Of a stretch of 64,000 nt of DNA, positions 10,920 to 46,815 are shown one piece after another (position 1 is the first letter of the stretch; each line of letters begins with the position of its first letter). Under the pieces are notes generated by a model that ran no database searches, had not been told where the DNA came from, and saw only the letters and a list, made by a program, of their open reading frames with translations. Origin of the DNA: an uncultured bacterium (lineage in GTDB: Bacteria; Verrucomicrobiota; Kiritimatiellia; PWTM01); contig CAVUUJ010000002.1 of the NCBI GenBank assembly GCA_963744655.1, positions 1,277,864-1,341,863 of the forward strand, read 5' to 3'. The translations under genes and the position numbers were made by a program.

Positions 10920-11094
10920 GGGGAATCTCCTTCCGGTCGCCTTGCGCATGAACGGTGCCGCGTTCATGAAGAAGGCAGGCTAGCGGTGTCGCGGGGGGGT
11001 GTCAGGTTCTTTGTTGTCCTGATTGATGCGCTCCGGGAGAGATCAAACCGTTCCCGGTATGCCGCGCGGGAAGGCATGGCGGTCGGTCGGGGGG

Positions 11095-11268
11095 GAGACG
11101 GAGGGCGGAGGGCGGAGGTCGGAGGGCGGAGTTCGGAGTCGGAGGTCGGAGGGCGGAGGGCGGAGGGCGGAGAGCGGAGGTCGGAGGGCGGAGGGCGGAG
11201 GGCGGAGGGCGGAGGTCGGAGAGCGGAGGGCGGAGAGCGGAGGTCGGAGGTCGGAGGTCGGAGGTCGG
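11095..11268. repeat. heptanucleotide tandem array, about 25 units of GAGGKCG (variants GAGAGCG, GAGTTCG)
   Basis: Read directly. The period is 7 and the G-rich strand is the + strand. The array is intergenic between two minus-strand operons. Confidence 0.9.
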
Positions 11269-11413
11269 TCAGGTTTCGCGGGGGGGCAACGGAGGCAACA
11301 GGGGGCGGAGGGCGTTGGGACCGTCGGGCCGTGTAGCAGCGCTCTCAGAGCGCCTGCGTGGCGCGGGGCGGGCCGTCGGACCGTGGAGCGGCCCTGCAAG
11401 GGGGAGGGCGGGA

Positions 11414-14034: not shown

Positions 14035-14185
14035 AACATCCTCCCCGGCGGACTGCGCCCGCTCTCCGCCCCGCCGTCCCCGAACGGGACGCGGCGGGCG
14101 GCACGGACCCTACTACGCGGCCCGCGGCCGGGCAAGGGGCGACGGCGGCGGCTGCGGCCGGGCCGGCGGAGGGTCGGACCGTGGG

Positions 14186-14296
14186 GAGACGGAGAGCGGA
14201 GGTCGGAGACCAGAGGTCGGAGGTCGGAGTCCAGAGGTCGGAGGTCGGAGACCAGAGGTCAGAGGTCGGAGTTCAGAGGGCGGAGGGCGGAGGGCG
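14186..14296. repeat. heptanucleotide tandem array, about 16 units (GAGGTCG / GAGACCA / GAGGGCG)
   Basis: Read directly. It opens with the same GGGGAGACG GAGRGCG lead-in as the 11.1-kb array. Confidence 0.9.
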
Positions 14297-14312
14297 GGGT
14301 CGCAGAAAAGGT

Positions 14313-14371
14313 GGTCCGCGCTGGCCCTCCGCCGCCCCTGGGGCTATGGAGGACAAGCCCGAACGCGGGCA
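14313..14371 (+). repeat. dispersed ~60-nt intergenic repeat (core CCCYGGGGCTATGGAGGA), copy 1
   Basis: GGTCCGCGCTGGCCCTCCGCCGCCCCTGGGGCTATGGAGGACAAGCCCGAACGCGGGCA. Reverse-complement copies lie at 40693-40753 and 46758-46815. Confidence 0.8.
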
Positions 14372-14454: not shown

Positions 14455-15235
14455 CTAGCCGCGGCGGCGGCGCAGGACCAGGGCCGCCCCGCCGAGGAGC
14501 AGCAGGCCCACCGAGGCCGGCTCGGGGATGAGGTCTACTCCATCGTCCAGACCGGCCGGTCTGGTTGTTGGACCACTCGATGCCATACTGCGTATGGCAA
14601 ACTGGTGGTCACGGTTGCCATCGCGTCCGCCCGGCGGATGGCGATGCCGAAGTTCTCGACGGGTTCTGGATCATGCGTCGAAGTCGGCCGCGCGCCCCGC
14701 GGCGGTGTCCCGAGATCGAAGGTGAAGGTGTCGGCGGTAGCGGCACCGCCATCCGCGACGCCATCCGAACTCGGCCGCGAAAACGGACTCGTCGCCGAAA
14801 TGCACCATGGAGGGAGGCGTATCGCCCACGGCGAGGGTGGCATCCCAATCGCGACGTGACGCGGAAGAAGGAGATATCGGCAGATCGCCCGTCGTGGGAT
14901 TGAGCCGAATTCCAGAATCTCATCGTGAGCGTCCAAGCCGAAGCCGCCTTCTGGTCCGTAGCGTCTTGGCCGTCAGGTCCACCTTCTCGTAGAATCCAGT
15001 AGGTCCAGGGTCGTTGGGAAACTGCCCGTCCAGGTAGCCAGATTCTGGCATAGCTGGCCGCCGACCTCCTGCATGAATAGTCTGGTCCTCGATACCGTGT
15101 CGACCTGATCTGACGTCCACCCACAGGCGCCGCGTCGGCGCCGATGCCCGAGTCATAGGTCACCAGCGCGGCCATGGCCCCCGTGCCAACCAGCAGGGCG
15201 GCGGCGGCAACGGCCATCCACTTGCACTTTCTCAT
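14455..15235 (-). pseudogene. decayed PEP-CTERM protein gene (multiple frameshifts)
   Basis: The signal peptide MRKCKWMAVAAAALLVGTGAMA (ATG 15235) and the sorting signal DLIPEPASVGLLLLGGAALVLRRRRG* (stop 14455-14457) are in different frames. The span is 781 nt, which is not a multiple of 3. Protein-like segments switch frame several times between them. GC is locally lower. Confidence 0.65.
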
Positions 15236-15371
15236 CCTCTTCTCCCGTGTTGGGGCCGGACTCCGTCGCCGGCCATCTCTTCGCTCCGAACGAAGGCCCG
15301 AAGCACAGTTCACGCTTGCATATCACCAGAAGCTCCTGTTCCAATCAAGCAGATTCGTGTAATGAAGTGAT

Positions 15372-18094: not shown

Positions 18095-19692
18095 CGGACG
18101 GAAGCCGCAGCACGCCACACGAAGCCGGAGAGGCCGCCGGGGGGCCGGACATCGTCCTGGTCCTCTTCGACCAGCTCTCCGCCAAGTGGCTCGAGGCGGC
18201 GCAGGCCGGGGCCTGCCCCGTGCCGCACCTCGACCGGCTCGCGGCCGAGGGCGTCTCTTTCCGCCGCGCGATCACGAGCAACCCCGTCTGCTGCCCCGCG
18301 CGCGCCACGCTCGCCACGGGCCGCACCTCGCGCCAGCACGGCGTGCTCCAGAACGGCTACGCGCTCGACCCCGCAATCCCCACCTTCATGCGCCTGCTCC
18401 AGCAGGCCGGCCGCCGCACCGGCTGCTTCGGCAAGCTGCACCTGCATCCGCACTTCGCCGGGCTGCGCCCGGACTACTCCGTGTACGGGTTCGACGTCAC
18501 GCGCCTCACCGAGGACCCGCGCGGCGGCGCGTGGCTGGACGGGGTGGAAGCGGAGTACCCGGAGCACTACGAGGCGGCGCTGGCCACGATCTGGGCGGGC
18601 TCCATCCCCGAGTTCGCCGCCTACGGCCCGGACCGTCGCGACCTGCGGCCCCGCATCCGCGCGGCGCGCGAGGGGCGGGACTGGACCTCGCCCGAGGTGC
18701 CGGACGGCGACGCGCGCCACGCCGTGCTGCCCTTCCCCGACGAGGTGAGCCAGACGGAGTGGATCACGCGCGGCGCGGAGGCGTTCATCGCGGAGACGCC
18801 GCCGGACCGGGCGCTCTTCGCCCACGTCGGCTACGTCCAGCCGCACAGTCCCTTCCAGGCCCCGGCCGCGTACTTCCGGGACCTGGACGACGCGCGCATC
18901 CCCGACGCCCTCCCCGCGACCTGGCGGGACGACCCGCACCACCCCCGCTGCTGGGACGGAGGCGGCGCGGCGGAGGACCTGCCGCCGGAGCGGGTCCGCT
19001 CCATGCGCCGCTGCTATTTCGCCGACCTCGCCCACCTCGACGCCCAGGTCGGCCGGATTCGCGCCGCGCTGGAAGCCGCCGGGCGGTGGGAGCGCACGCT
19101 GCTCGTCGTCGCGGCCGACCACGGGGAACTGCTCTACGACCACGCCCACCACGGCAAGGGCAACCCGCACTACGACGCCTGCGTGCGCGTGCCGCTGCTC
19201 GTCGCCGGGCCCGGCCTGCGCGGCGGACTCGTCCGCGACGAGTTCGTGCAGCTCGAGGACCTGTTCCCCACGTTCCTCGACGCCGCCGGCCTCGAGGCGC
19301 CCGCGCCCCCCGCCGCCGGCCCCTACCTGCGCGGCGTCCAACCGGCCCGCCTGCCGGGCCGCTCCCTGCTGCCGCTCTGCCGCGGCGAGGCCGCGCCGGC
19401 GGACGGGCGGGACCACGCCTACGCGGAGAGCTACAGCGATATCTTCTCCTGCACGCCCGACGCCTGGGCCCGCACCGTGCGGACCGACCGCTGGCGCTAC
19501 ACCCGGTTCCCCGGCGGCGCCGGGGAGCAGCTCTTCGACCTCGAACGCGACCCCGACGAGCTCGTCAACCGCGTCGCCGACCCCGCCTGCCGGGACGCGC
19601 TGACCGAACTGCGCGAACGGCTGCTCGATGCCGTCATCCTCCAGGACCACCCCCACCCGCCCCGCGGCCTCTTCTCGCACGGCGTGCACTGA
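18091..19692 (+). CDS. Cys-type sulfatase with no obvious signal peptide
   Basis: 533-aa ORF with an ATGA overlap at 18091-18094. Motifs IVLVLFDQLSAKW, NPVCCPARATLATGR, LLVVAADHGELL and FDLERDPDELVN. Confidence 0.8.
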   Translation: MTDGSRSTPHEAGEAAGGPDIVLVLFDQLSAKWLEAAQAGACPVPHLDRLAAEGVSFRRAITSNPVCCPARATLATGRTSRQHGVLQNGYALDPAIPTFMRLLQQAGRRTGCFGKLHLHPHFAGLRPDYSVYGFDVTRLTEDPRGGAWLDGVEAEYPEHYEAALATIWAGSIPEFAAYGPDRRDLRPRIRAAREGRDWTSPEVPDGDARHAVLPFPDEVSQTEWITRGAEAFIAETPPDRALFAHVGYVQPHSPFQAPAAYFRDLDDARIPDALPATWRDDPHHPRCWDGGGAAEDLPPERVRSMRRCYFADLAHLDAQVGRIRAALEAAGRWERTLLVVAADHGELLYDHAHHGKGNPHYDACVRVPLLVAGPGLRGGLVRDEFVQLEDLFPTFLDAAGLEAPAPPAAGPYLRGVQPARLPGRSLLPLCRGEAAPADGRDHAYAESYSDIFSCTPDAWARTVRTDRWRYTRFPGGAGEQLFDLERDPDELVNRVADPACRDALTELRERLLDAVILQDHPHPPRGLFSHGVH

Positions 19693-19915
19693 GCGCCCCT
19701 GCAGGTGTTCAATATTGCCGTCGCGACGGCCGCCCAAACGAAGGTTATCGCCCCCTCGCGCAACATGAGCTGTCAACCAGTTCTCCTCAGGTAGGAGTCC
19801 CGGCATCCCCCTCAAGAGCGTCTCGGAATAGGCCGTGCTTCTGCCGGAGCACTCGGCATCTCTTCATGCTCCTCTGTGCTTTCGGACATTCACCGCCTTC
19901 CACTGCAGTAATGCT

Positions 19916-19946: not shown

Positions 19947-20024
19947 GAACGGGCCGGAGGCGCCGGCTGGAGCCGAAGGCCGGCGTAGTCATAAAAGACT
20001 AACACAAATTGGAAAAAAGCACTT

Positions 20025-20053
20025 TACAGTTGGGGGGGGGGGGGGGTAGAAAG
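20025..20053 (+). promoter_or_regulatory. candidate sigma70-like promoter TTTACA-N17-TAGAAA whose spacer contains an uninterrupted G14 run (20034-20047)
   Basis: An A-rich tract lies upstream (AAAAGACTAACACAAATTGGAAAAAAGCAC). The same -35/17-nt G-rich spacer/TA-hexamer layout is seen at 26675-26703 and 29027-29055. Confidence 0.45.
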
Positions 20054-20134
20054 GACATCGTAATCGGCGGAGAGGTCCTGTTCAGCATGGGGTCGGCACA
20101 GGCGATGGAAGCCGCCGGATGAGGAGAACAAGAG

Positions 20135-20902
20135 ATGAAGAAGCGAGCAATCAGTGGCCTGATCTGCGTCGGCCTGTTGCTGGTCGCATTGTCGGCCGTG
20201 AGCGTTCATGCGGCGGTCATAACGGGGTTCACGACAGCAGAAGGCTATGACTTCGGAACAACCTACTGGAAGCATCCGAAGACGTTGACCAGCTACACGA
20301 CGGCCAACGGGACCGTCGATGGGACGAACTTCCACGCGGCCGACACGGCGACCGCCCATGCTAACTACTACTACGGCGAGCAGAGCACCGATCCGGGCAG
20401 CTCCGCGGGGCTGCTCGAGAACCTGGACGTCATGACCGGGTACGTCAACATAGCGGGGCAGACGAACTACGACTTCATGTTCAACGCGCCCTACCGCTTC
20501 AGCAGCGCGACGGGCAACCCCGGTAACGATGACGACTTCTTCGTGTTCGAGATATCGCCTAGCGATAGTCCCGACAACGTGACGCTGCAGGCTCTGGACT
20601 CCAGTTCCTCGCCCCTCGGCTCCGCGGTGTTCCTCAACCAGACGGCCATCCCCGGTGACGTGATCCGCTTCCGCGCCCCGAATCCCGCCCAGACTGACAT
20701 GAGCGGGTGGGGGTTCGATTACGACGATTTCGGAGTGGCGGATGCGACCCAGATCGCCGGCCTGCGCATCTACGATAGCCGCTCCGGCGGCGGCTTCGAT
20801 CCGGGCGTCGTAGGCATCAACAATGCCATCCCCGAGCCGGGGACGCTCGGCCTGCTCGGCGTGGCGGTGGCGGCCATGCTGCTCCGCCGGCGCCGTGCGT
20901 AA
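20135..20902 (+). CDS. PEP-CTERM sorting-domain protein
   Basis: 255-aa ORF. Signal peptide MKKRAISGLICVGLLLVALSAVSVHA. C-terminus IPEPGTLGLLGVAVAAMLLRRRRA*. RGGAG-like RBS. Confidence 0.85.
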   Translation: MKKRAISGLICVGLLLVALSAVSVHAAVITGFTTAEGYDFGTTYWKHPKTLTSYTTANGTVDGTNFHAADTATAHANYYYGEQSTDPGSSAGLLENLDVMTGYVNIAGQTNYDFMFNAPYRFSSATGNPGNDDDFFVFEISPSDSPDNVTLQALDSSSSPLGSAVFLNQTAIPGDVIRFRAPNPAQTDMSGWGFDYDDFGVADATQIAGLRIYDSRSGGGFDPGVVGINNAIPEPGTLGLLGVAVAAMLLRRRRA

Positions 20903-21050: not shown

Positions 21051-21628
21051 TCCTCATCCATGCGTTACGCGGACAATGGGGGCTGAAATGGCCCTTGGAG
21101 CGTTTCTGAGGGCGGGTTCCGGCGTCTCCAAGGCGGTTTGACCGAGAAGGCGCCCGGGGCGGCCGGGCTCGACAGGCTGCTCTCCTTCACCTGCCCACGT
21201 ACGGAAGAGGCGGGCAGGGCGTTCGGCGCCATTCCGGCAGCGGGGTGCCGCCGTGGCCGGGAAGGTCAGGTCTCTCGGATTCCGCCCTTCGCAGGAGCGT
21301 CGCGTTCCGGGCCGCGGCGGCCCGGGTCCGGTGAGCCCGTCGGACCCGGGCACCGGGTGCGGCCGGTCCCCTTCGCCCGCCGTATCGTGCCCCCCGTTCC
21401 GCGCGGCGCCGGCCGCTGCCGGCCGCGGACCCGCAACACCGGGGCCGGCGGCTTTCGGCCCGGGGGCGGTCGGTGGTTGACGTGACCCGCGGGCCGGTGT
21501 TCTGCTTCGCCCGCACGGAGACGGAGACGCGGGGGAGGGCGGGCCTCCCCGGCGAGGCGTGGATCCGGGCCCGGGTGACCCGGCAGGCGCCTCACCTCGC
21601 GCCGATGTGCACAACAGGAGATCGTCCC

Positions 21629-24600
21629 ATGGCTCTTCGCACCGCGCTTTCCGCCCTGCTCTCCCTGCTCCTCGCCGGCCCCCTGTTCGCGGCCCGGGAA
21701 GGCGAGTACTTCAGGGAAGACCGCAACCTGGGGCAGGTGGACAGGGGGGTCGACCGGATCGAAGGCCTCCTGTTCTGGCTCAAGAGCGATGCGGGCGTGG
21801 AAGTGGACGAGCAGGGCCATGTCGTCGCCTGGACGGACGCGTCCGGCCGCGGGCATGTCTTCGAGGCCCTCCCCGGGGCCGCCCACCCCGCCAGGCTGAC
21901 CCCGGGGGTCGTCCGTGGCCGGCCCGCGCTGACCTTCACGGCCGCCCAGCACAAGCCGGGCGGGCTGGTCAACCGGGAGATCGGTATCGACCCGGCCAAG
22001 GGGCTCTCGCTGGTCCTGCTTGCGCGCGTCGCGGGCATGGATCGCCACGCGTTCCTCGTCGTCTACGGCGACCAGTACAGGACCAAGGGCTCCCTCGGCA
22101 TCGGCTCGACGGGTTACGAGACGTACGGCAAGAGCTGGTGGCGGGTCGTGGCGGACTCGGAGGAGCTCTTCAAGTCCACGGACGACAACATCGCCGGCAA
22201 GGGCTTCGTGCTCTTCGTGGCCGCCTACGATCCGGGCACGAAGACCCTGACCGCCTACCAGGACGGTGTGCAGGTCGGACAACGGGAGTGCGACCTTGCC
22301 CTGGCGCCCGGGCACCCCTTCGGCATCGGCGCGGAACCCCGCGGTCAATGGTCCTTCGGCGGCGAGGTGCTCGAAGCGCTTGCCTACAACCATGCCATGG
22401 ATCGGGACGAGGTGCGGGCTCTCACCCGGGCCATCCTGTCCCGGCATGGTCTCGGGGGCGCGCCCGTGAGTTCCATGGCCCCGCTCCTGCCCTTCGCCTA
22501 CTACCCCTCCAGGAACCAGATGGAGGTGGCCGTGGAGCTGAGCCCGGACCTGCTGCGGAAGGCGGGCACCACGCCCGGGGAGGTCCGGGTTCGCGTGCGC
22601 GACGCCGGGACCCGGGCGGTCGTCGCCACGGGCACGGTGCCGCTCGACGCCCAGGCCCGGGGCCAGGCGCTGTTCGACGTGCCGGACTTACCCGACGGCG
22701 AGTACGCCGTGGAGTACGTCATCGGAAGGCACGTCGAGATCTCGCCCAAGACCTTCCGGCGCATACATTTCCCCTTCGAGACCTCGTCCCTCGGCGAGGA
22801 ACACGAGGTCTACCCCCCGTTCACACCCGTCGAGGTCGAGGGCGCGTCCGTGTCCGTGGTGGGCCGCACCTACACCCTGAACGCCTTCGGTCTCTTCGAC
22901 CAGGTCACCAGCCTCGGCCGCCCCCTCCTGGCCGGCCCCATCGCCCTTCACGGCCGGACCGGGGCCGGCCCGATCCGGTGGCAGCCGGGCGCGCTGGAGG
23001 GCAAGCGCGTCCACGACGACGAGGCGCTCTTCCACGCGGCCTGCGCGGGCTCGGGGGTGCGGGTCCGAACCCGGACCGTGATCCAGGAGGACGGGTGCGC
23101 CCGCATCGACATGATCCTCAAGCCCGGCGCGGACCGGGCCGAGATCGAGCGGCTCGTGCTGGAGATTCCCTTCCGGGACCGCGAGGCCCCCCTGTTTCAC
23201 TACGTCGCGGACAACGGCATGCGCTTCAACTACGCGGGCCGCACCCCGCGGGGCGGCACGATCGAGTGGTACAGCGAGCCGTGGGACGGCTGGGTGCCCA
23301 TCCGGTGGCGCGTCAGGCAGCCCGGCCCGGACGACGGCGTGATCTGGACCGGCGCGCATCCGCGCCAGCACGGCAACACCCAGCGCTGGGATCACCGGCC
23401 GTTCGCGCCCTATATCTGGCTCGGCGCGGAGCAGCGGGGGCTGGCCTTCTTCATGGAGAGCGAACGGGGCTTCGAGACCGACTACCGCACGCCGGTGCAA
23501 CAGCTGATCCGCCGGGGCGACGAGGTGATCCTGCGCGTGGAGATCTTCCAGCGGCCCGTGACCCTCACGCGTCCCCGCCGTCTGACCTTCGGCCTCATGG
23601 CCAGTCCGGGCAAACCGATGGAGGAGCGGTTCCGCACCCGGACCCTGGCCTCGGGCATAGGACCCGTGTCCTGCTGGGGGGGCTGGCAGTGTTCGAGCAA
23701 GTACCCGGACCACCGCGACTGGACCCTCGTGGACCGGATCCAGGAGATCCGCAGGCGGGGCGAGTACACGGAAGCGGACCAGCAGTGGTTCGAAGCCAAG
23801 GCCGAGGACGTCCGGGCGCGCTGGCCCGAGCGCAAGATCAACGGCAGTTCCGACTGGCTCTGGCTCACCACCCTCTTCGCCCGCCGCGCGGCGGAAAAGG
23901 GGGCCGGGCATTCCGGCACTTACTTCGAGGAGCACGCCACCGATCCGCTCCTGCCCGAATGGCAGGTCTTCCAGGACGAGTGGGCCAGTTCCGAGTTCAA
24001 CCGCTTCCGCGAGCGCAGCGCCAACTGGGGCGTCTTCTCGCCGAGTTACCACGATTTCGCGCTCTACATGGCCAACGAGTGGATGCGGCGCGGGGTGAGC
24101 CTCTACTTCGACAACACGAACCCCAAGCGGTGCTACAACGAACGCTTCGGCCCCGCGTTCCGCGGCCCCGACGGCGCCCTGCGCTACGGCATCAGCCTCT
24201 TCGGCCAGCGCCGCTACTACCGGCGCGTGTACAAGCTGCTGAGCAAGTGGAACGAGAAGGGCGCCCCGTACCCGGTCGACTTCACCCTGCACATCACCAA
24301 TACGCAGACGCTTCCGTTCAACACGTGGGCGACCGCCACCCTGGACCTCGAGCAGCGAGCGCACACGCTCAACCCGGAGTTCTTCCCGCCGGAGACCGAG
24401 ATGACCGTGGCCGAACTCACGGCGGGCAGGGGCCGGATCGTCACCGAGCGCGCCCGGGAGCGCCACGCGGCCCGGGAGGAGAAGGCCCGTCGCGCCGGGT
24501 ACCAGCTGCCCTGGCCGCCGGACTACACGCGCACCGTCACCTTCGGCCGCCAGGTCGGAGCCATCCCCCTGGCGCTCGACTTCGTCAGCGGCCACAGCCG

Positions 24601-25141
24601 GCACCATGGCCCCGACTACACGCCGGCGATGGTGCTGCGCAACTGGGCCATGCGCCGCCTTCACGACATCCGCGCGGGGGCCCTGTACTACAAGAGCGCC
24701 GCCCGGGCCCGGGACTACGAGGCCCTCCTGCTCGGCTTCGGGTACGGCGACGCCGACCGGGTGGCGGAGAGCAACTACTGGGAGCCGGACCCCGCCGTCC
24801 GGGTTGGCGACCCCCGCATCAAGTGGATGGCCCTGACCCGGCGCGACCCCGGCGCGGACCCCTTCGGCCTCCTGCTGCTGCAGAGCTACACCCGTGCCGA
24901 CGCGGTGACCGCGCAGGTGACCCTCCCGGGGGCCGCGGCCCTGGTGGACGTGGAAACCCGCGAGCGCATCGCGGTGGCCGGGGACCGGGCCGCCGTGACC
25001 ATGCCCGCCAATTTCTCGACGCGCATGTTCCTCGCGGTCCGGGATCCCGAACGGGCGGCGAGCCTGGCCCGGTCCCAAGGCATACGGGTGGAGGACCTGG
25101 CGCCGCCCCCTGTCCCGGGGTCGGCCGACGGATCGCCCTGA
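21629..25141 (+). CDS. giant-paralog family member B (N-terminal LamG/concanavalin-like module)
   Basis: Start MALRTALSALLSLLLAGPLFA (ATG 21629, CAGGAG RBS 8 nt upstream). LamG-like block: FWLKSDAGVEVDEQGHVVAWTD...FVLFVAAYDPGTKTLTAYQDGVQVG...FGGEVLEALAYNHAMDRDEV. Family motifs FPFETSSLG..VYPPFTPV, LTFGLMASPGKP and SLYFDNTNP. Confidence 0.8.
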   Translation: MALRTALSALLSLLLAGPLFAAREGEYFREDRNLGQVDRGVDRIEGLLFWLKSDAGVEVDEQGHVVAWTDASGRGHVFEALPGAAHPARLTPGVVRGRPALTFTAAQHKPGGLVNREIGIDPAKGLSLVLLARVAGMDRHAFLVVYGDQYRTKGSLGIGSTGYETYGKSWWRVVADSEELFKSTDDNIAGKGFVLFVAAYDPGTKTLTAYQDGVQVGQRECDLALAPGHPFGIGAEPRGQWSFGGEVLEALAYNHAMDRDEVRALTRAILSRHGLGGAPVSSMAPLLPFAYYPSRNQMEVAVELSPDLLRKAGTTPGEVRVRVRDAGTRAVVATGTVPLDAQARGQALFDVPDLPDGEYAVEYVIGRHVEISPKTFRRIHFPFETSSLGEEHEVYPPFTPVEVEGASVSVVGRTYTLNAFGLFDQVTSLGRPLLAGPIALHGRTGAGPIRWQPGALEGKRVHDDEALFHAACAGSGVRVRTRTVIQEDGCARIDMILKPGADRAEIERLVLEIPFRDREAPLFHYVADNGMRFNYAGRTPRGGTIEWYSEPWDGWVPIRWRVRQPGPDDGVIWTGAHPRQHGNTQRWDHRPFAPYIWLGAEQRGLAFFMESERGFETDYRTPVQQLIRRGDEVILRVEIFQRPVTLTRPRRLTFGLMASPGKPMEERFRTRTLASGIGPVSCWGGWQCSSKYPDHRDWTLVDRIQEIRRRGEYTEADQQWFEAKAEDVRARWPERKINGSSDWLWLTTLFARRAAEKGAGHSGTYFEEHATDPLLPEWQVFQDEWASSEFNRFRERSANWGVFSPSYHDFALYMANEWMRRGVSLYFDNTNPKRCYNERFGPAFRGPDGALRYGISLFGQRRYYRRVYKLLSKWNEKGAPYPVDFTLHITNTQTLPFNTWATATLDLEQRAHTLNPEFFPPETEMTVAELTAGRGRIVTERARERHAAREEKARRAGYQLPWPPDYTRTVTFGRQVGAIPLALDFVSGHSRHHGPDYTPAMVLRNWAMRRLHDIRAGALYYKSAARARDYEALLLGFGYGDADRVAESNYWEPDPAVRVGDPRIKWMALTRRDPGADPFGLLLLQSYTRADAVTAQVTLPGAAALVDVETRERIAVAGDRAAVTMPANFSTRMFLAVRDPERAASLARSQGIRVEDLAPPPVPGSADGSP

Positions 25142-26268: not shown

Positions 26269-26674
26269 CCACGCGAAGGCGGCCACGGCCACCGGCCGCC
26301 TGCCGGCCCGGGGCGAAGCGCGAGCCCGGCGCCCGGGGCCTCACCCCGCCATCCCCCGCGGCGGACAGGGGGGGCGTGACGGGTCAGGCCGTGGCACGTG
26401 ATCACGCCTCGCTCGCGGCTCCGGGGCGGCGCGAATCGTGGCGGCGCGGCGCGTGCCCGCCGGTTCGGTGCCGGGAGCGTCGCGCTGTCCGCCCGGCCCC
26501 CGGCGCCGCGCTCCGCAACTCAAGGCCCCGGCTCGGGAGCCCCCCCACCACCGGAGGCGGGCGGACATCGAAAGCCGCTACGCCGGCTTGCCCCCGAACG
26601 CCGCCAGGGCCGAACAGGCCGCGAACAACGGGCTAGTCCATTGGGACTAGGGGCAAGAAAATGCAGAAAGGGGC

Positions 26675-26703
26675 TTGACCTGGATGGGGGCGGGGGGTAA
26701 GAA
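26675..26703 (+). promoter_or_regulatory. candidate promoter TTGACC-N17-TAAGAA (G-rich spacer TGGATGGGGGCGGGGGG)
   Basis: Same architecture and downstream leader (CATCGTAATCGGTGGAGAGGTTCTGTTCGGCATG) as the 20.0-kb cassette. Confidence 0.4.
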
Positions 26704-26766
26704 GGGCATCGTAATCGGTGGAGAGGTTCTGTTCGGCATGCTGCCGGAACAAGAAGGAAGGGGAGA

Positions 26767-27657
26767 ATGATGAAGGTGACTATGTTTCGTCGAGTGACGG
26801 TTGCGGCGTCGATCGCCCTGTTCTGCGGTCTCATGTGGCCCGCGACGGCGGAGGCCACGACCGTCGGCTGGTGGCGCTTCGAGGACGGTGCGTTCCAGGA
26901 GGATTCCGGTCCTAACAACTTTGATCTGACCGTGCCCGCGGGTGACAACAACCCGGTCCAGGTCACTCCCTTGCCGGGCAGCGGCGACGGCAGCGCGTTC
27001 CAGAATCCGATTGCCAAGACCGGCGACTCCAATACCGGCCTTGCCCAATTCACGCCCAGCAGTTCTCGACCCCGGCTGCGTTCAGCGCCGGTTCCTCGTC
27101 GCTCTTCGCACTCGGCGCCGACTACACCTTCGAATTCATGTTCAACCGGGATACCGACGCCTACGGGTTCCTGTTCGCCCAGTGGACGGACGGCGGCGGA
27201 AGTGCCGGTAACACATTCGGCTTAGCCGTCGGCCAGGATGGCTCGGACTACATACGTGTGGCTCGGGGCAGTTCGTCCGCGAACCTCACGGCCGCGGGCG
27301 CGTTTACCACCGGCACGGACTACTATGTCGCCCTGGTCCGGGACGGCACCGCGAATACGGACCTGCTCTACCGCCAGGACCTGACCAACGGTGGGGCCCT
27401 GCAGGTGTTCGATGTCACCGCTGCCACGGCCGGCCAAAACAAGGTCATCGGTGACACGGGTCTCGGATGTGATCATCGGCGCGCTGCGGACGGGGTCTAC
27501 CTCCACCGACCTTCCGTTCAACGGGTTGATCGACGAGCTGCGCATCTCGGACACGGCCCTCGCGCAGAGCGAGCTCCTGGTCGTCCCCGAACCGGCGACG
27601 CTCGGCCTGCTGGGCCTGGCGGGTGTGGCCATGATCCTGCGCCGCCGCCGCGGCTGA
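26767..27657 (+). pseudogene. PEP-CTERM/LamG-like protein gene, copy 1; two compensating frameshifts
   Basis: The N-terminus (MMKVTMFRRVTVAASIALFCGLMWPATAEA...) and the C-terminus (..VVPEPATLGLLGLAGVAMILRRRRG*) are in the same frame. The homologous middle part (27138 ORF: MFNRDTDAYGFLFAQWTDG...) is in another frame. Relative to copy 2 there is a 1-nt deletion at 27061-27070 and a 1-nt insertion at 27449-27460. Confidence 0.7.
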
Positions 27658-27680
27658 CGAACGGCGACAGCGCTGCATTC

Positions 27681-27720
27681 GCGCGGGCCCTCCCGATCGG
27701 GAGGGCCCGCGCTCTTTCTC
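27681..27720 (+). terminator. Rho-independent terminator candidate
   Basis: 14-bp perfect stem GCGCGGGCCCTCCC-GATC-GGGAGGGCCCGCGC followed by TCTTTCTC. Confidence 0.65.
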
Positions 27721-27952
27721 GTCCGGGTGCGGGGGATTGCCCGGCGCGGCCCCGCCCCTCTGCGCCAAGAGGACGAACCGCGAAGAGACGCGAACGGGAC
27801 GGGGGGCCTGGGGAACGGGACATCGAAGGCCTGCGTCGCGTCGTCGCGGTGCAGGCGCGCGGCGGCCGGCCTGCCGCGGACGCATGTCCCGATCGCGGAG
27901 CCGCGTAATCAGCACAACACACTTCCTGACAGCACGGCATGGCTTGGGCAAG

Positions 27953-29002
27953 ATGGCGCACATGGAGCACGTGCGGGTCACGGACGACGAGCGGGGCGTT
28001 CTGCGCGGGCTGGCCGCGCGCGTGGCGGAGCTTGCCGCTGACCCCGCGCAGGAAGCGAAGCGCGAGGCGGTGCGCGCGCTGAACCGGCTCGACCCCGTTC
28101 CGCCGCGCATCTACTGCTTCCCGGAGGCGGCCTGGCTGGAGGCGATCCCGCCGGCCTCGCTCGCCTGTGCCGGCCCGCTGCTCCGCGGCTGGGAAACGCG
28201 GCTTCGCATGGCGATCTACACCGCCGAGGTGCTGCGCGACGACCAGCCGGTGGACGCGGTCTTCAACCTGCCGTGGCACGGGGGCACGACGGGCTGGGGG
28301 CTGGAGGCGGACGTGCGCGCGACGGGCCGGGGCGAGGCGTCGGTCTACTACCTCCACCCCTATTCCGGCTACCGCCTCGCCCGCCCCTCCGACGGCGGCG
28401 CGGTGCACTACGACCCGCCGCTGCGCGAGCACGCGGACCTCGACAAGCTCGGCGCCCCGGAGGTCCGGGTCGACCGCGAGGCGTCGGCGCGGCAGCTCGA
28501 CCTGGCGCGCGAGCTTTTCGACGGCCTGCTCGAGGTCCGCCGCCGCGGCGGCTGGTGGCCGCTGCTCGGCGGCCTCTCCCAGGCCGCCGTGACGCTGCGC
28601 GGCGCGGACGCGCTGATGCTGGACCTCTACGACGACCCGGCGTGGGTGCGCGCCTACCTCGGCCGCCTCGCCGAGGGCCACCACGCCCTGCTCGACCGGC
28701 TCGAGGCCGAGGGTTTCCTCACGCTCAACAACGGGTGCGAGTGGATCCACACGGGCGGGATCGGCACCTCGGACGAGCTGCCCGCGGCGGGGTTCGACCC
28801 CGCGCGGCCGCGCTGCGCGGACCTCTGGGGCGGCGTGGAGAGCCAGGACCTCGTGGGCATCTCCCCCGCGCTCTTCGAGGCCCTCCCCGGGGCCGCCCAC
28901 CACCGGAGGCGGGCGGACATCGAAAGCCGCTACGCCGGCTTGCCCCCGAACGCCGCCAGGGCCGAACAGGCCGCGAACAACGGGCTAGTCCATTGGGACT
29001 AG
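27953..29002 (+). pseudogene. truncated, chimeric duplicate of the 30302..31636 URO-D-like gene
   Basis: Identical to the full copy through ..VGISPALFE (duplication junction at 28880). It then reads into repeat-derived sequence ALPGAAHHRRRADIESRYAGLPPNAARAEQAANNGLVHWD*. Confidence 0.75.
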
Positions 29003-29026
29003 GGGCAAGAAAAAGCAGAAAGGGGC

Positions 29027-29055
29027 TTGACCTGGATGGGGGCGGGGGGTAAGAA
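29027..29055 (+). promoter_or_regulatory. candidate promoter TTGACC-N17-TAAGAA (duplicate of 26675-26703)
   Basis: Identical hexamers and spacer. The same conserved leader follows. Confidence 0.4.
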
Positions 29056-29118
29056 GGGCATCGTAATCGGTGGAGAGGTTCTGTTCGGCATGCTGCCGGA
29101 ACAAGAAGGAAGGGGAGA

Positions 29119-30006
29119 ATGATGAAGGTGACTATGTTTCGTCGAGTGACGGTTGCGGTGTCGATCGCCCTGTTCTGCGGTCTCATGTGGCCCGCGACGG
29201 CGGAGGCCACGACCGTCGGCTGGTGGCGCTTCGAGAACGGTGCGTTCCAGGCGGATTCCGGTCCTAACAACTTTGATCTGACCGTGCCCGCGGGTGACAA
29301 CACCCCGGTCCAGGTCACTCCCTTGCCGGGCAGCGGCAACGGCAGCGCGTTCCAGAATCCGATTGCCAAGACCGGCGACTCCAATACCGGCCTTGCCCAA
29401 TTCACGCCCAGCGGTGCTACGACCCCGGCTGCGTTCAGTGCCGGTTCCTCGTCGCTCTTCGCACTCGGCGCCGACTACACCTTCGAATTCATGTTCAACC
29501 GGCCTGCCGAAACTTACGGGTACCTGTTCGGCCAGTGGACGGACGGCACAGGTGCCGGTAACGTTTTCGGCTTCGCCGTCGGCCAGGGTGGCTCGGACTA
29601 CATACGTGTGGGTCGGAACGCTAATGGCGTGAACCTCACGGACGCGGGCGCGTTTACCACCGGCACGGACTACTATGTCGCCCTGGTCCGGGACGGCACC
29701 GCGGATACGGACCTGCTCTACCGCCAGGACCTGACCAACGGTGGGCCCCTGCAGGTGTTCGATGTCACCGCTGCCACGGCCAGCCAAGACAAGGTCATCG
29801 GTGACACGTCTGCGAAAGTGATCATCGGCGCGCTGCGGACGGGGTCTAGCAGCACCGACATTCCGTTCAGCGGGTTGATCGACGAGCTGCGCATCTCGGA
29901 CACGGCCCTCGCGCAGAGCGAGCTCCTGGTCGTCCCCGAACCGGCGACGCTCGGCCTGCTGGGCCTGGCGGGTGTGGCCATGATCCTGCGCCGCCGCCGC
30001 GGCTGA
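29119..30006 (+). CDS. PEP-CTERM sorting-domain protein with a LamG/concanavalin-like body
   Basis: 295-aa intact ORF. Signal peptide. Motifs GADYTFEFMFNRPAETYGYLFGQWTDG, TDYYVALVRDGTADTDLLYRQD and FSGLIDELRISDTAL. C-terminus VVPEPATLGLLGLAGVAMILRRRRG*. Confidence 0.85.
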   Translation: MMKVTMFRRVTVAVSIALFCGLMWPATAEATTVGWWRFENGAFQADSGPNNFDLTVPAGDNTPVQVTPLPGSGNGSAFQNPIAKTGDSNTGLAQFTPSGATTPAAFSAGSSSLFALGADYTFEFMFNRPAETYGYLFGQWTDGTGAGNVFGFAVGQGGSDYIRVGRNANGVNLTDAGAFTTGTDYYVALVRDGTADTDLLYRQDLTNGGPLQVFDVTAATASQDKVIGDTSAKVIIGALRTGSSSTDIPFSGLIDELRISDTALAQSELLVVPEPATLGLLGLAGVAMILRRRRG

Positions 30007-30029
30007 CGAACGGCGACAGCGCTGCATTC

Positions 30030-30069
30030 GCGCGGGCCCTCCCGATCGGGAGGGCCCGCGCTCTTTCTC
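30030..30069 (+). terminator. Rho-independent terminator candidate (duplicate of 27681-27720)
   Basis: Same perfect 14-bp stem and TCTTTCTC tail. Confidence 0.65.
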
Positions 30070-30301
30070 GTCCGGGTGCGGGGGATTGCCCGGCGCGGCC
30101 CCGCCCCTCTGCGCCAAGAGGACGAACCGCGAAGAGACGCGAACGGGACGGGGGGCCTGGGGAACGGGACATCGAAGGCCTGCGTCGCGTCGTCGCGGTG
30201 CAGGCGCGCGGCGGCCGGCCTGCCGCGGACGCATGTCCCGATCGCGGAGCCGCGTAATCAGCACAACACACTTCCTGACAGCACGGCATGGCTTGGGCAA
30301 G

Positions 30302-31636
30302 ATGGCGCACATGGAGCACGTGCGGGTCACGGACGACGAGCGGGGCGTTCTGCGCGGGCTGGCCGCGCGCGTGGCGGAGCTTGCCGCTGACCCCGCGCAG
30401 GAAGCGAAGCGCGAGGCGGTGCGCGCGCTGAACCGGCTCGACCCCGTTCCGCCGCGCATCTACTGCTTCCCGGAGGCGGCCTGGCTGGAGGCGATCCCGC
30501 CGGCCTCGCTCGCCTGTGCCGGCCCGCTGCTCCGCGGCTGGGAAACGCGGCTTCGCATGGCGATCTACACCGCCGAGGTGCTGCGCGACGACCAGCCGGT
30601 GGACGCGGTCTTCAACCTGCCGTGGCACGGGGGCACGACGGGCTGGGGGCTGGAGGCGGACGTGCGCGCGACGGGCCGGGGCGAGGCGTCGGTCTACTAC
30701 CTCCACCCCTATTCCGGCTACCGCCTCGCCCGCCCCTCCGACGGCGGCGCGGTGCACTACGACCCGCCGCTGCGCGAGCACGCGGACCTCGACAAGCTCG
30801 GCGCCCCGGAGGTCCGGGTCGACCGCGAGGCGTCGGCGCGGCAGCTCGACCTGGCGCGCGAGCTTTTCGACGGCCTGCTCGAGGTCCGCCGCCGCGGCGG
30901 CTGGTGGCCGCTGCTCGGCGGCCTCTCCCAGGCCGCCGTGACGCTGCGCGGCGCGGACGCGCTGATGCTGGACCTCTACGACGACCCGGCGTGGGTGCGC
31001 GCCTACCTCGGCCGCCTCGCCGAGGGCCACCACGCCCTGCTCGACCGGCTCGAGGCCGAGGGTTTCCTCACGCTCAACAACGGGTGCGAGTGGATCCACA
31101 CGGGCGGGATCGGCACCTCGGACGAGCTGCCCGCGGCGGGGTTCGACCCCGCGCGGCCGCGCTGCGCGGACCTCTGGGGCGGCGTGGAGAGCCAGGACCT
31201 CGTGGGCATCTCCCCCGCGCTCTTCGAGGAGTTCTTCCTGCCTGTGTTCCGGCCCGTCGTCGAGCGCTTCGGCCTCGGCTGCTACGGCTGCTGCGAGCCG
31301 CTGCAGGACTGGCTGCCGGCGCTGCGTACGATCCGCAACCTGCGGCGCGTGTCCGTCTCGCCCTGGGCCGACGTGGCGGCCTGCGCGGAGCGCATGGGCC
31401 CGGACCTTGTCTTCTCGCGCAAGCCGTCGCCGACGCCGCTCTCCACCGGGCGGGTGGACGGGGACGCCATCCGGCGCGAGTTGGAGGAGACCTTCCGCAT
31501 CGCGAAGGCGAACGACTGCCGGGTGGAGGTCATGATGAAGGACTTGCAGACCGTGCGCGGCGATACCGCGCGCCTGCGCCGCTGGGTGGAGCTGGCGCGG
31601 GCGGCGCGCGCCGCGGTATACGGGGAGTCGGCATGA
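30302..31636 (+). CDS. distant URO-D-superfamily-like protein (GCYGCCEP subtype)
   Basis: ATG 30302 (MAHMEHVRVTDDERG...). Motif QDLVGISPALFEEFFLPVFRPVVERFGLGCYGCCEPLQDWLPAL matches the ISPxxFxEFxxP block of the other URO-D-like paralogs. ATGA overlap with GH116 at 31633-31636. Confidence 0.65.
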   Translation: MAHMEHVRVTDDERGVLRGLAARVAELAADPAQEAKREAVRALNRLDPVPPRIYCFPEAAWLEAIPPASLACAGPLLRGWETRLRMAIYTAEVLRDDQPVDAVFNLPWHGGTTGWGLEADVRATGRGEASVYYLHPYSGYRLARPSDGGAVHYDPPLREHADLDKLGAPEVRVDREASARQLDLARELFDGLLEVRRRGGWWPLLGGLSQAAVTLRGADALMLDLYDDPAWVRAYLGRLAEGHHALLDRLEAEGFLTLNNGCEWIHTGGIGTSDELPAAGFDPARPRCADLWGGVESQDLVGISPALFEEFFLPVFRPVVERFGLGCYGCCEPLQDWLPALRTIRNLRRVSVSPWADVAACAERMGPDLVFSRKPSPTPLSTGRVDGDAIRRELEETFRIAKANDCRVEVMMKDLQTVRGDTARLRRWVELARAARAAVYGESA

Positions 31637-34290: not shown

Positions 34291-35843
34291 AGAAGGCGCC
34301 GGGCTGGGCCGTGAGACTGGGAGGGATCGCCATGCTGGCTCTTTCCGTTGCGCGCGGGGAAGACGGGCTCCGGCTTCCGAGCGTCTTCTCCGAGGGCATG
34401 GTTCTGCAGCGGGACCTGCCGGTCCCGGTCTGGGGCGAGGCCCGTCCGGGCGCACGGGTGACGGTGCGGTTGTACGACCACGGGCGGCTGCTGGCCGACG
34501 CGTCCGCTACGGCGCGCGCGGACGACGGGGCCTGGCGCGTCGATCTCCCGCCGCAGCCGGCGGGCGGACGGTTCTCGCTGCTCGTCGAGAGCCGCCCGGC
34601 CGGCGCGGACGGGCGGGTCGCGCGGCGGCTTTTCACGAACGTGCTGATCGGCGAGGTGTGGATCCTGTGCGGCCAGTCCAACGCGCTTTTCGCGATGAAC
34701 GGGTGCGCGGAGCGGGAGGACGCGCTTGCCCGGCTCCGGGACTACCCGCTGATTCGCGTCTTCCAGCTCGGCGGCCGGGAGGACGTCCTCGAGGCGCGGG
34801 CGCCCCGGACGGACACGCAAGGGTACTGGGGACCGGCCAAGTGGGAAGAGGCCGCCTACACCGTGCCGCGGTCGAGCGAGACGGACGTGCCCGGCTCCTC
34901 GTCCGCCGTGAGCTACTTCTTCGCCCGGGCCCTCGCCCGGTGGCTGGGCCCCGGCGTGCCGGTGGGCATGATCGAGATCGGGGCCATCCTCCCCGTCGAA
35001 AGCTGGGTCGACGACCGGACCCTGGAGGGGGTCCCCGCCTTGCGCGGGCTGCGGGGCAAGGACTACCCCCACGCCACCGGGCGCGCGTTCAACGCCCTCA
35101 TCGCGCCGCTGGCCCCGTACGCTGTACGCGGCGCCGCCTACTACCAGGGCGAGATGAACGCCGGCCGTCCGGCAGACTACTACCACGGGCTGAAGGCCCT
35201 CGTCGCCGGCTGGCGCCGGGCGTGGGACCGCCCGGATCTGCCCTTCCTGCTCGTGCAGCTGCCGGGCTTCATCGAGCACCTCGCCGGGAAGACGGATCTG
35301 GACATGAACGCCGAGCAGTTGGCCCGCTTCGACGGCCGGAACGCCGATCACCCGTTCTGCCGCATTCGCGAGGCCCAGCGGCGGGTCAGCCGCGAGGTGC
35401 CCGGCGTCGGGCTGGCGGTGACGATCGACACGGGCGAGCGCTTCGACATCCATCCGCCGCGCAAGCGCGCCGCGGGCGAGCGCCTGGCGCTGCAGGCCCG
35501 CAAGGTGGCGTACGGCGACGGGACGGCGGCGGCCGACGGGCCGCGGCCCCGCGCCTTCCGGCGCGAGGGCGGGGCGTACCTCGTCGCCTTCGACGGCGTC
35601 GGCGGCGGCCTGCGGGCCAGGGGCAGGCTGGACGGGTTCGAACTGCGCGACGCGGACGGCGCGTGGCACCCCGCCCCCGCGCGAATCCGCGGCGACACGG
35701 TGGAAGTCCGGGCCGAGGCCGCGGCCGCGCCCACCGGTGTGCGCTACGCCTGGGCCGGGTATCCCCCGACGCCGCTCTACAACGCCGAGGGATTGCCCGC
35801 GACGCCCTTCCACGAACCGCCTGTCGCCTTCGACGTCCCCTGA
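34287..35843 (+). CDS. sialate O-acetylesterase-like (SASA/DUF303-type) carbohydrate esterase, secreted
   Basis: Signal peptide MKKAPGWAVRLGGIAMLALSVARG. Motifs LPSVFSEGMVLQRD, GEVWILCGQSNALFAM, RGAAYYQGEMN, FLLVQLPGF and VRYAWAGYP. Confidence 0.8.
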   Translation: MKKAPGWAVRLGGIAMLALSVARGEDGLRLPSVFSEGMVLQRDLPVPVWGEARPGARVTVRLYDHGRLLADASATARADDGAWRVDLPPQPAGGRFSLLVESRPAGADGRVARRLFTNVLIGEVWILCGQSNALFAMNGCAEREDALARLRDYPLIRVFQLGGREDVLEARAPRTDTQGYWGPAKWEEAAYTVPRSSETDVPGSSSAVSYFFARALARWLGPGVPVGMIEIGAILPVESWVDDRTLEGVPALRGLRGKDYPHATGRAFNALIAPLAPYAVRGAAYYQGEMNAGRPADYYHGLKALVAGWRRAWDRPDLPFLLVQLPGFIEHLAGKTDLDMNAEQLARFDGRNADHPFCRIREAQRRVSREVPGVGLAVTIDTGERFDIHPPRKRAAGERLALQARKVAYGDGTAAADGPRPRAFRREGGAYLVAFDGVGGGLRARGRLDGFELRDADGAWHPAPARIRGDTVEVRAEAAAAPTGVRYAWAGYPPTPLYNAEGLPATPFHEPPVAFDVP

Positions 35844-36119
35844 ACGCGTGAACTCAACGGCGGCACTCCGTCCGCTGAAGGAACTTGTTCGAATCTCTTC
35901 TCTCCCGCAAGGCCGCCAAAATCGCCGAGGTTTTCCTGTTCAGGCAGGCCGTTGACCGTGCGTGCGATGCCACGTTTCATCATGTCCTCACCGAAGTTCA
36001 GCAGGTAACCGAGCTTCAAGCCGGTGAGCTTCACATAGGTCAAGAGCCGCTTCTCGTGGGCCTCGGTGATCCGCTCAACGGACTTCAATCCGGCGCTCGA
36101 TTCAGAAAGAAATGACCGG

Positions 36120-36148
36120 TTGACGTTGTAACGTTGTAGCGCTATGCG
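36120..36148 (+). promoter_or_regulatory. candidate TA promoter TTGACG-N17-TATGCG overlapping the tandem 8-mer ACGTTGTA ACGTTGTA (36123-36138; possible antitoxin operator)
   Basis: Read directly. A GGGAGG RBS at 36160-36165 precedes ATG 36172. Confidence 0.4.
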
Positions 36149-36171
36149 GTTGTCGTGAAGGGAGGTAAGAC

Positions 36172-36594
36172 ATGAGCATCCTGACGAAACGCGCAACGGT
36201 CTATCTTGACCCGGTTCTGCACAAAGCGCTTCGCCTGCAGTCCGTCGAGACCTCACGGTCCGTTTCCGAACTGATCAACGACGCCGTTCGGGACGAACTC
36301 GCCGAAGATGCTCGCGACCTCGCCCAGTTTGATGAGCGAGTGAAGGAGACCACCGTTGACTTCGAGGACTTCGTGAAGAGTCTGCAGCGCGATGGCACGA
36401 TATGGAGTCATCGTCCGCAAGTCCGTCGCAAAGGACATGAGGGGCATCCCGAGGAAGGATGCCCGGCGCCTTGTTGCAGCCATCAAGTCCCTTGCGGACG
36501 ATCCTCGCCCGCCAGGTGCCAAGAAGCTCTCCGGTCAGGAGCGGTACCGTCTCAGGCAGGGGAAGTGCCGAATCCTGTACGAAGTCCGGCATGA
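36172..36594 (+). CDS. ribbon-helix-helix (CopG/RelB-like) antitoxin; the ORF is abnormally extended over the toxin gene
   Basis: MSILTKRATVYLDPVLHKALRLQSVETSRSVSELINDAVRDELAEDARDLAQFDERV... The first ~78 aa look like an antitoxin. The remaining ~60 aa are an out-of-frame overlap with the RelE gene. Confidence 0.65.
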   Translation: MSILTKRATVYLDPVLHKALRLQSVETSRSVSELINDAVRDELAEDARDLAQFDERVKETTVDFEDFVKSLQRDGTIWSHRPQVRRKGHEGHPEEGCPAPCCSHQVPCGRSSPARCQEALRSGAVPSQAGEVPNPVRSPA

Positions 36595-36970: not shown

Positions 36971-37245
36971 GGTGAAGGTGTCGGGTTTCAGGTGTCGGGT
37001 TTCAGGGTCACTTCCCGAGCCGCAAGGGGTGTGGTTTTCGGTCACGTGCCGGCATTGATCGCCGGACCCGGCTGCCGGGTTCATGGCGCTCTCCTGCCGG
37101 CCTCTGGTGACCCGCATACCTCCGGACGCAGCCGGCACAGCTTGCGGTAGACCTCGAGGTCTTCCACCGCCATGCAGGTCCTCTCTGCCCTCTTTCCGTC
37201 CTGAAACCCGACACCTGAAACCTGAGCCCCGACACCGTTGTCACC
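36971..37245. repeat. imperfect ~40-bp inverted repeats built from 7-nt units (GTGTCGG GTTTCAG x2) flanking ~185 bp
   Basis: Left arm GGTGAAGGTGTCGGGTTTCAGGTGTCGGGTTTCAGGGTCAC. The right arm (37198-37245) is its approximate reverse complement. Confidence 0.7.
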
Positions 37246-40692: not shown

Positions 40693-40753
40693 CTGCCCGG
40701 GTTGAGGCTCGTTCCTCCATAGCCCCGGGGGCGAGGGAGGGCCAACGCGGGCC
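40693..40753 (-). repeat. dispersed ~60-nt intergenic repeat, copy 2 (reverse orientation)
   Basis: The reverse complement reads GGCCCGCGTTGGCCCTCCCTCGCCCCCGGGGCTATGGAGGAACGAGCCTCAACCCGGGCA. Confidence 0.8.
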
Positions 40754-40838
40754 ACCGGGTCTGCACAGGAGCCAACAGAGGAAACGGAGACCACCCCCTC
40801 CGCCTCCACCTCCGTTACCTCTGTTCCCTCCTGTGCAA

Positions 40839-46757: not shown

Positions 46758-46815
46758 TGCCCGCGTTGGAGCTTGTCCTCCATAGCCCCGGGGCGGTGGG
46801 CGGCGTTGGCCCCAA
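46758..46815 (-). repeat. dispersed ~60-nt intergenic repeat, copy 3 (reverse orientation)
   Basis: The reverse complement reads ..GGGGCCAACGCCGCCCACCGCCCCGGGGCTATGGAGGACAAGCTCCAACGCGGGCA. Confidence 0.8.

Follow-up and report, generated by a model that had tools for sequence, protein, structure and literature searches.

A probable tandem duplication holding two alleles of a hypervariable LamG surface-protein gene in an uncultured high-GC bacterium

How can two adjacent copies of a chromosome segment be clearly different in their left part and identical in their right part? The question is raised by a 64-kb stretch of contig CAVUUJ010000002.1 (64,000 nucleotides, referred to as the window; G+C content 72.7%), in which a gene for a surface protein with a LamG domain and a PEP-CTERM anchor occurs twice in a row, each time followed by the beginning of the same downstream gene. 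The host is a high-GC Lentisphaerae/Kiritimatiellaeota-type bacterium degrading sulfated glycans. The locus is, on balance, probably a genuine tandem duplication of 2.34 kb, either young or homogenised by conversion, that holds two alleles of one hypervariable LamG gene. Repeats were located with a repeat finder and by local alignment of the two units. The analysed DNA is the 64-kb window out of a contig of at least 2.16 Mb, and absences of donors or enzymes reported below hold within it. Additional evidence was drawn from low-depth metagenome runs of sediment and soil (five to seven were found, with a host depth of 2-6x); no run with better coverage and no RNA run turned up. Alleles were reconstructed from Logan-type contigs of runs X1, X2 and X4, runs X5-X7 being uninformative.

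Two units with mosaic identity

A tandem duplication had been described at 26545-31229 in an initial annotation made from the sequence alone, and alignment resolves it into two units on the forward strand. Unit 1 (26544-28880) comprises a spacer with a promoter, LamG/PEP-CTERM copy 1, a terminator and codons 1-309 of the downstream gene. Unit 2 (28896-31229) is a head-to-tail direct repeat of unit 1, recovered by the repeat finder as well as by alignment. Small indels shift the offset between the units stepwise, from 2352 through 2353 and 2350 to 2349. No long repeat or mobile element was found at the unit ends in a repeat search of the window.

The right part of the units is a block of 1359 bp without a single difference (27522-28880 = 29871-31229, forward strand). 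Identity had already been noted from about 27525 to 28880 at offset 2349, together with the identical translations of the open reading frame (ORF) pairs 27727/30076 and 28167/30516, all of which agrees with the alignment, the exact start of the block being 27522. The left part (26544-27521, ~980 bp) contains about 50 substitutions and several small indels, and the density of differences in the left versus the right part is unequal with a Fisher P of 6e-20. The alignment check for a breakpoint that the initial annotation had recommended places it at 27521/27522 and excludes uniform divergence across the unit.

The body of the PEP-CTERM gene had been described as clearly diverged. This holds for the left part as such, but the changes are confined to short patches and are not gene-wide. 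Substitutions cluster at 27061-27066, 27150-27161, 27191-27215, 27262-27280, 27458-27468 and 27500-27521, to which five isolated N-terminal changes are added. The 222-nt spacer shows 2 differences, isolated synonymous changes in the left part amount to 1 in about 226 synonymous sites, and neutral sites of the left part thus carry 3 differences in ~448 sites versus 0 in 1359 for the right block (P = 0.015). At neutral sites the units have hardly diverged, and the level in the left part matches strain divergence, as an imported allele tract would show.

A junction with templated filler

The join between the two units appears to contain a templated filler that the initial annotation had missed. 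The 30 nt at 28872-28901 (forward strand) are an exact copy of 21858-21887 on the same strand, inside a GH123-like/LamG gene (21623-25141) located 7 kb upstream, and the expected number of chance matches for such a copy is 0.00. Base-by-base comparison divides the 30 nt into three segments. Positions 28872-28880 (TCTTCGAGG) constitute a 9-nt microhomology with the downstream gene, which matches through 28880. Positions 28881-28895 are a 15-nt filler matching solely the upstream gene. Positions 28896-28901 (CCCACC) provide a 6-nt microhomology with the spacer, whose match is unbroken from 28896 onwards. The sequence diagnostic of the junction is TCTTCGAGGCCCTCCCCGGGGCCGCCCACCACC.

Part of this junction was recovered independently. 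In metagenome run X2, a Logan contig of 161 nt begins with 11 nt of the filler (CCTCCCCGGGG) and continues with 150 nt identical to the spacer, an adjacency that occurs nowhere but at the duplication junction. The X2 contig differs from the window at position 28895, where the window has G, the state of the donor, and X2 has C, the state of the copy-1 spacer.

Judged by its three matching segments, the compound junction carries the signature of two successive replication template switches. Copying of the downstream gene would have broken off at codon 309 and the growing strand re-annealed 7 kb upstream through the 9-nt microhomology, where ~15-21 nt of the GH123-like gene would have been copied. 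A second switch through the 6-nt CCCACC would have brought it to the LamG spacer, and 2.3 kb would have been replicated again.

In Escherichia coli, template switching gives rise to tandem repeats whose borders carry 4-15 bp of G-rich microhomology (PMC1428787). The lac amplification of this bacterium (Slack et al. 2006, PMC1428787) is comparable to the present duplication in its head-to-tail repeat, in the lack of long flanking repeats and in the length of the microhomologies, the G/C-rich 6 and 9 nt observed here falling within 4-15 bp. It differs in that its units measure 7-32 kb, compared with 2.3 kb here, and in that the present junction is compound, with a 15-nt filler from a third site. 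Moreover, the lac amplification took place under laboratory selection, whereas the present duplication comes from a wild genome. As a natural case from a bacterium, the locus would be a clean record of a two-step template switch at the junction of a tandem duplication. Comparable junctions are mostly documented in laboratory selections or in eukaryotes. Serial template switches of the kind named fork stalling and template switching (FoSTeS) or microhomology-mediated break-induced replication (MMBIR) leave short templated inserts with microhomology, and are known mainly from human copy-number variants and from yeast. The present case differs from these in being on a bacterial chromosome and at the kilobase scale, the mechanism being deduced from a single junction.

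Two copies of a lectin-type surface protein gene

The assignment of a LamG/PEP-CTERM gene to the unit was upheld by the profile searches. Copy 2 (29119-30006, forward strand) is intact and encodes 295 residues with a signal peptide, a ConA-like lectin domain and a PEP-CTERM anchor. It passes the thresholds of Laminin_G_3 (PF13385, 31.6 bits versus a cut-off of 27.6), PEP-CTERM (PF07589, 25 bits versus 20.7) and TIGR02595 (28 versus 16). The signal peptide is N-terminal, and the C-terminus consists of a VPEP motif, a hydrophobic helix and an RRRRG tail. Copy 2 shares the signal peptide and this VPEP-helix-RRRRG end with the PEP-CTERM/exosortase-sorted proteins (TIGR02595, PF07589), although no exosortase gene was found among the ORFs scanned in the window. 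The closest relative of the LamG protein in the protein database searched is 38% identical. An AlphaFold2 model of copy 2 built on ten homologues (pLDDT 74, pTM 0.75) places a beta-sandwich between an N-terminal signal helix and a C-terminal helix. Foldseek aligned it to CBM40, to AbnA domain 4 and to legume lectins with E-values of 1e-6 to 1e-5, and the predicted fold matches carbohydrate-binding modules and lectins.

Copy 1 (26767-27657, forward strand) is disrupted by two frameshifts that went unseen in the initial annotation. Alignment with copy 2 shows a deletion of 1 nt near 27066 and an insertion of one G at 27458-27460. Between these indels, 395 nt are out of frame and run into a TAG codon at 27223-27225. 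Barring errors in the consensus, the two 1-nt indels have inactivated copy 1. Both frameshifts are situated inside variable patches.

When the copies are compared in the frame of copy 2, 43.5 nonsynonymous (Nd) versus 3.5 synonymous (Sd) differences are counted, i.e. a ratio of nonsynonymous to synonymous divergence (dN/dS) of about 4.5, and the nonsynonymous excess has a binomial P of 0.0007-0.003. Predicted loops contain 32 of the 39 variable residues, compared with a loop content of 59% for the domain (P = 0.0013). On the forward strand, the main hypervariable block extends over 27061-27292 in copy 1 (29413-29642 in copy 2) and corresponds to loops 99-101, 129-132, 142-149 and 165-171. The second variable block, at 27432-27521 (29782-29870 in copy 2), corresponds to loops 222-233 and 244-251. 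According to the model, nearly all differences between the units would fall in exposed loops of a surface protein of sugar-binding type. The substitutions come from all four bases without adenine bias and are accompanied by several indels.

Donors of the variable patches were searched for in the window by blastn-short and tblastn and none was found. The only related pieces in the window are PEP-CTERM tails of other genes, a shared 55-nt promoter/leader segment (20035-20089) and a 63-nt LamG remnant (19688-19750). This remnant stands right after the stop codon of a sulfatase gene and is 75% identical to LamG codons 207-228, which suggests an older decayed LamG copy.

Alleles in metagenome strains

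The LamG gene is a strain-level hypervariable surface-protein gene of which the two units hold two alleles. This reading follows from the alleles reconstructed at the same loops in strains with near-identical flanks. Loop 1 reads DG-TGAGNVF in copy 2, DGGGSAGNTF in copy 1, DGGGRTSNPF in the X1 variant and DG-GSANTF in the X2 variant. The respective loop 2 sequences are RVGRNANGVN, RVARGSSSAN, RVGRNTNGVN and RVVRMNSPSVN. A third variable site reads SAK in copy 2, VSD in copy 1 and SAH in X4, and a copy-2-like contig of X1 has two further replacements. At least three further in-frame alleles vary at the same loops in the metagenome strains, so that at least four or five alleles exist in total.

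All of the metagenome contigs are in frame, their indel lengths are multiples of three and every codon difference changes an amino acid. The alleles are mosaics of each other and also include sequence absent from both window copies. The X1 variant, for instance, is copy-2-like in loop 2 and copy-1-like at residues 157 and 175. Loop divergence amounts to 11-12%, compared with 0.1-0.5% between the flanks of those strains and the window.

Origin of the duplication and of its alleles

The initial annotation had offered three explanations for the pattern. An old duplication with later conversion of the right part is the least supported, since neutral divergence is near zero in the left part too and there is no old divergence to be erased. 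The other two, import of another allele and diversification centred on the body of the surface protein, are both compatible with the dN/dS ratio, the concentration of changes in loops and the further alleles of near-identical strains. The favoured reading unites them. Diversifying selection would act on the loops through in-frame indels and patches of amino-acid changes, and short-patch recombination would move these between strains. The allele of one unit was most likely replaced by homologous recombination after the duplication, and copy 1 would have been inactivated since. Several points weigh against this reading. Independent reads cover only the right half of the junction, from filler to spacer, in one run at ~3x. 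Metagenome depth over the duplicated block shows no visible doubling, but at 2-6x it is too low and too noisy to judge. The metagenome alleles stem from contigs of 150-250 nt that could belong to unit 1, to unit 2 or elsewhere, and the loop sequences and frameshifts of copy 1 were found in no other data set. Pattern scans of JGI metagenomes and GTDB for the LamG core and the terminator gave no match, and the order of events is only inferred because no close genome with a single-copy locus was found in these searches. Finally, if X2 shares the duplication by descent, the flawless match of the right block points to conversion between copies rather than youth.

This last point is developed by a reading that appears doubtful as a whole, in which the duplication is old, the units undergo concerted evolution, conversion homogenises them and selection for two lectin specificities keeps the patches apart. 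The junction occurs in X2, a strain with a LamG allele unlike either copy of the window, so that the duplication may predate the strain split. The state of position 28895, donor-like in the window and spacer-like in X2, is as conversion predicts and hints at conversion between the units, and strains differ by 0.1-0.5%, more than the units do with 0 differences in 1359 bp. Nevertheless, copy 1 is frameshifted, and two working lectins are thus not currently maintained by selection; conversion would also have to halt precisely around many short patches, and the near-identity of X2 to the window strain makes the age argument weak. A recent and a homogenised duplication are inseparable here, their common core being near-zero neutral divergence together with selected loop differences. 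The same layout, diverged and then identical, resembles false duplications induced by haplotypes, i.e. two strain haplotypes chained in tandem by the assembler, or a mis-polished copy 1. Several allelic strains are present in the metagenomes, the frameshifts lie where alleles differ in length and the copy-1-specific loop sequence was seen in no run. An assembly artefact is nonetheless very improbable, because haplotype chaining would not invent a 15-nt filler from 7 kb away with microhomologies in register and because the filler-to-spacer join is present in short-read contigs of X2. Base quality also seems high elsewhere in the window, where ORFs of 1000-1500 residues are uninterrupted.

It is likewise improbable that the LamG gene and its frameshifted twin are part of a dedicated and active loop-variation system rapidly retuning a glycan-binding surface lectin in PUL-like loci of Lentisphaerae/Kiritimatiellaeota-type bacteria, either by conversion from copy 1 as a silent donor cassette, as in pilE/pilS or vlsE, or by another targeted rewriting of the loops such as template-switch patching. 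An intact gene beside a frameshifted near-copy, the position of both frameshifts within variable patches, the mosaic X1 variant and the contrast between loops and flanks would all suit such a system, and active variation would explain a loop divergence of >10% in strains otherwise >99.5% identical. However, there is one possible donor for at least four or five alleles with sequence of neither copy. The only extra copy detected in the window retains its own promoter and start codon, and no other cassettes, reverse transcriptase, invertase or recombinase were found within the 64 kb. A diversity-generating retroelement (DGR) was considered and rejected, the substitutions being free of adenine bias and accompanied by indels, and no reverse transcriptase domain being detected in the large ORFs of the window.

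Comparison with known variable surface proteins

Neisserial PorA and Opa proteins and the variable regions of pilin are built of mosaic alleles, with loop-confined amino-acid-changing patches and in-frame indels. The LamG gene shares this pattern, including a framework conserved even at synonymous sites. It differs in encoding a PEP-CTERM protein with a LamG/ConA-like lectin domain in an environmental glycan degrader. Mtd-type DGRs are similar in that variation affects the C-terminal half of a ligand-binding protein and a second copy of the variable region is located nearby. They differ from the present locus, which shows no reverse transcriptase in the window, no adenine specificity, indels and a LamG rather than a C-type lectin fold. 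The match to the Pfam family mtd_2nd (18.4 bits) is below the cut-off of 24.6.

The locus is a clear, if fairly ordinary, case of surface-protein diversification. Within a poorly studied phylum, it singles out a PEP-CTERM-anchored LamG lectin-type protein, encoded next to sulfatase and glycoside hydrolase genes, as a candidate for strain-level hypervariability at the cell surface. Should its loops determine glycan or phage specificity, the LamG gene would give access to niche partitioning or phage pressure among glycan degraders of sediments.

The downstream gene and the chimeric ORF

The full-length downstream gene (30302-31636, forward strand) encodes 444 residues. Its relatives, 61-64% identical, are found in metagenome-assembled genomes (MAGs) of Victivallales, Lentisphaerae and Kiritimatiellaeota (GTDB), without synteny, and together they make up a conserved family with no assigned function in those MAGs. 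It had been called URO-D-like, a name that the searches do not support, as neither PF01208 nor a PDB profile is matched and no Pfam or NCBIfam match is obtained even at E = 10. The one link to URO-D is a faint resemblance to the neighbouring URO-D-like protein, with a blastp E-value of 7e-4 and an hhalign probability of 3.7%. A structure model from the single sequence reached a pLDDT of 37 and was unusable.

The chimeric ORF of 349 residues reported at the junction is present at 27953-29002 (forward strand) and is composed of 309 codons of the downstream gene and a new tail of 40 residues from filler and spacer. Because its own start and upstream region are kept, this truncated gene could yield a 349-aa product without the C-terminal 134 residues. 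Were the two 1359-bp identical blocks to recombine, the intact LamG copy would be lost and the broken one would remain, and selection for a working LamG protein could thus hold the duplication in place. Caution is advisable in annotating the locus, where one of the LamG copies is a pseudogene and calling its neighbour URO-D-like lacks support.

Upstream and terminator elements

The upstream control region of copy 1 (26633-26703, forward strand) has a twin in unit 2 at 28985-29055. The palindrome CTAGTCC-ATTG-GGACTAG (26633-26650) precedes a -35-like TTGACC (26675-26680), a G-rich spacer of 17 nt and a -10-like TAAGAA (26698-26703). These elements are putative promoters of the LamG units, proposed from their spacing and motifs; a scan with consensus promoters gave no match in the LamG upstream region. 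The spacer had been called repeat-rich, a description that does not stand, since Tandem Repeats Finder gives no match there and only the palindrome and G-runs are visible. The terminator included in the described unit was retrieved in both units as an intrinsic hairpin of 14 pairs with a T-rich tail (27681-27712, twin at 30030-30061, forward strand).

The palindrome, a perfect one, occurs at 26633-26650 and 28985-29002, and a similar one, GTAGTC-N6-GACTAA, at 19985-20002 precedes another PEP-CTERM gene. These palindromes may represent a shared operator. In front of that other gene (20135-20902), a run of 15 G (20032-20046) lies between a -35-like TTTACA and a -10-like TAGAAA (20023-20052). A G-run filling the spacer between -35 and -10 is the classic layout of slipped-strand phase variation. 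The LamG units share its leader, 26686-26740 being 87% identical to 20035-20089 over 55 nt, with the G-run interrupted in the LamG units. An Rfam scan of 19-32 kb gave no match.

Genomic neighbourhood

The duplication is surrounded by several sulfatases, two GH123-like proteins, GH116, GH42, an MGH1-like hydrolase, a sialate-type esterase and AraC/IclR-type regulators. Four further ORFs of the window match URO-D, and five of its genes code for PEP-CTERM proteins. The region is a sulfated-glycan utilisation region. Genes for PEP-CTERM, URO-D-like, GH123-like and sulfatase proteins recur together on both strands from 4755 to 26268, and ORF 4755-7673 fuses URO-D-like and sulfatase domains. At 14457-15313 (reverse strand) a PEP-CTERM gene appears multiply frameshifted, its signal peptide and tail being in different frames, and is likely the second pseudogene of its class in the window.

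Several repeats lie between the genes. Two related arrays of 7/14-nt tandem repeats are intergenic and 3 kb apart (11091-11317 and 14141-14332). Inverted-repeat elements of 36-52 nt, 85-92% complementary, occupy three intergenic sites (14302-14371, 40713-40764 and 46758-46793) and could form a small dispersed repeat family. Additionally, a 1.5-kb patch of lower GC content at 35.7-37.2 kb includes a small lower-GC ORF with a PD-(D/E)XK_3 nuclease domain (35780-36274, reverse strand), near which the inverted repeat TCGGGTTTCAGG occurs twice at 36981-37225.

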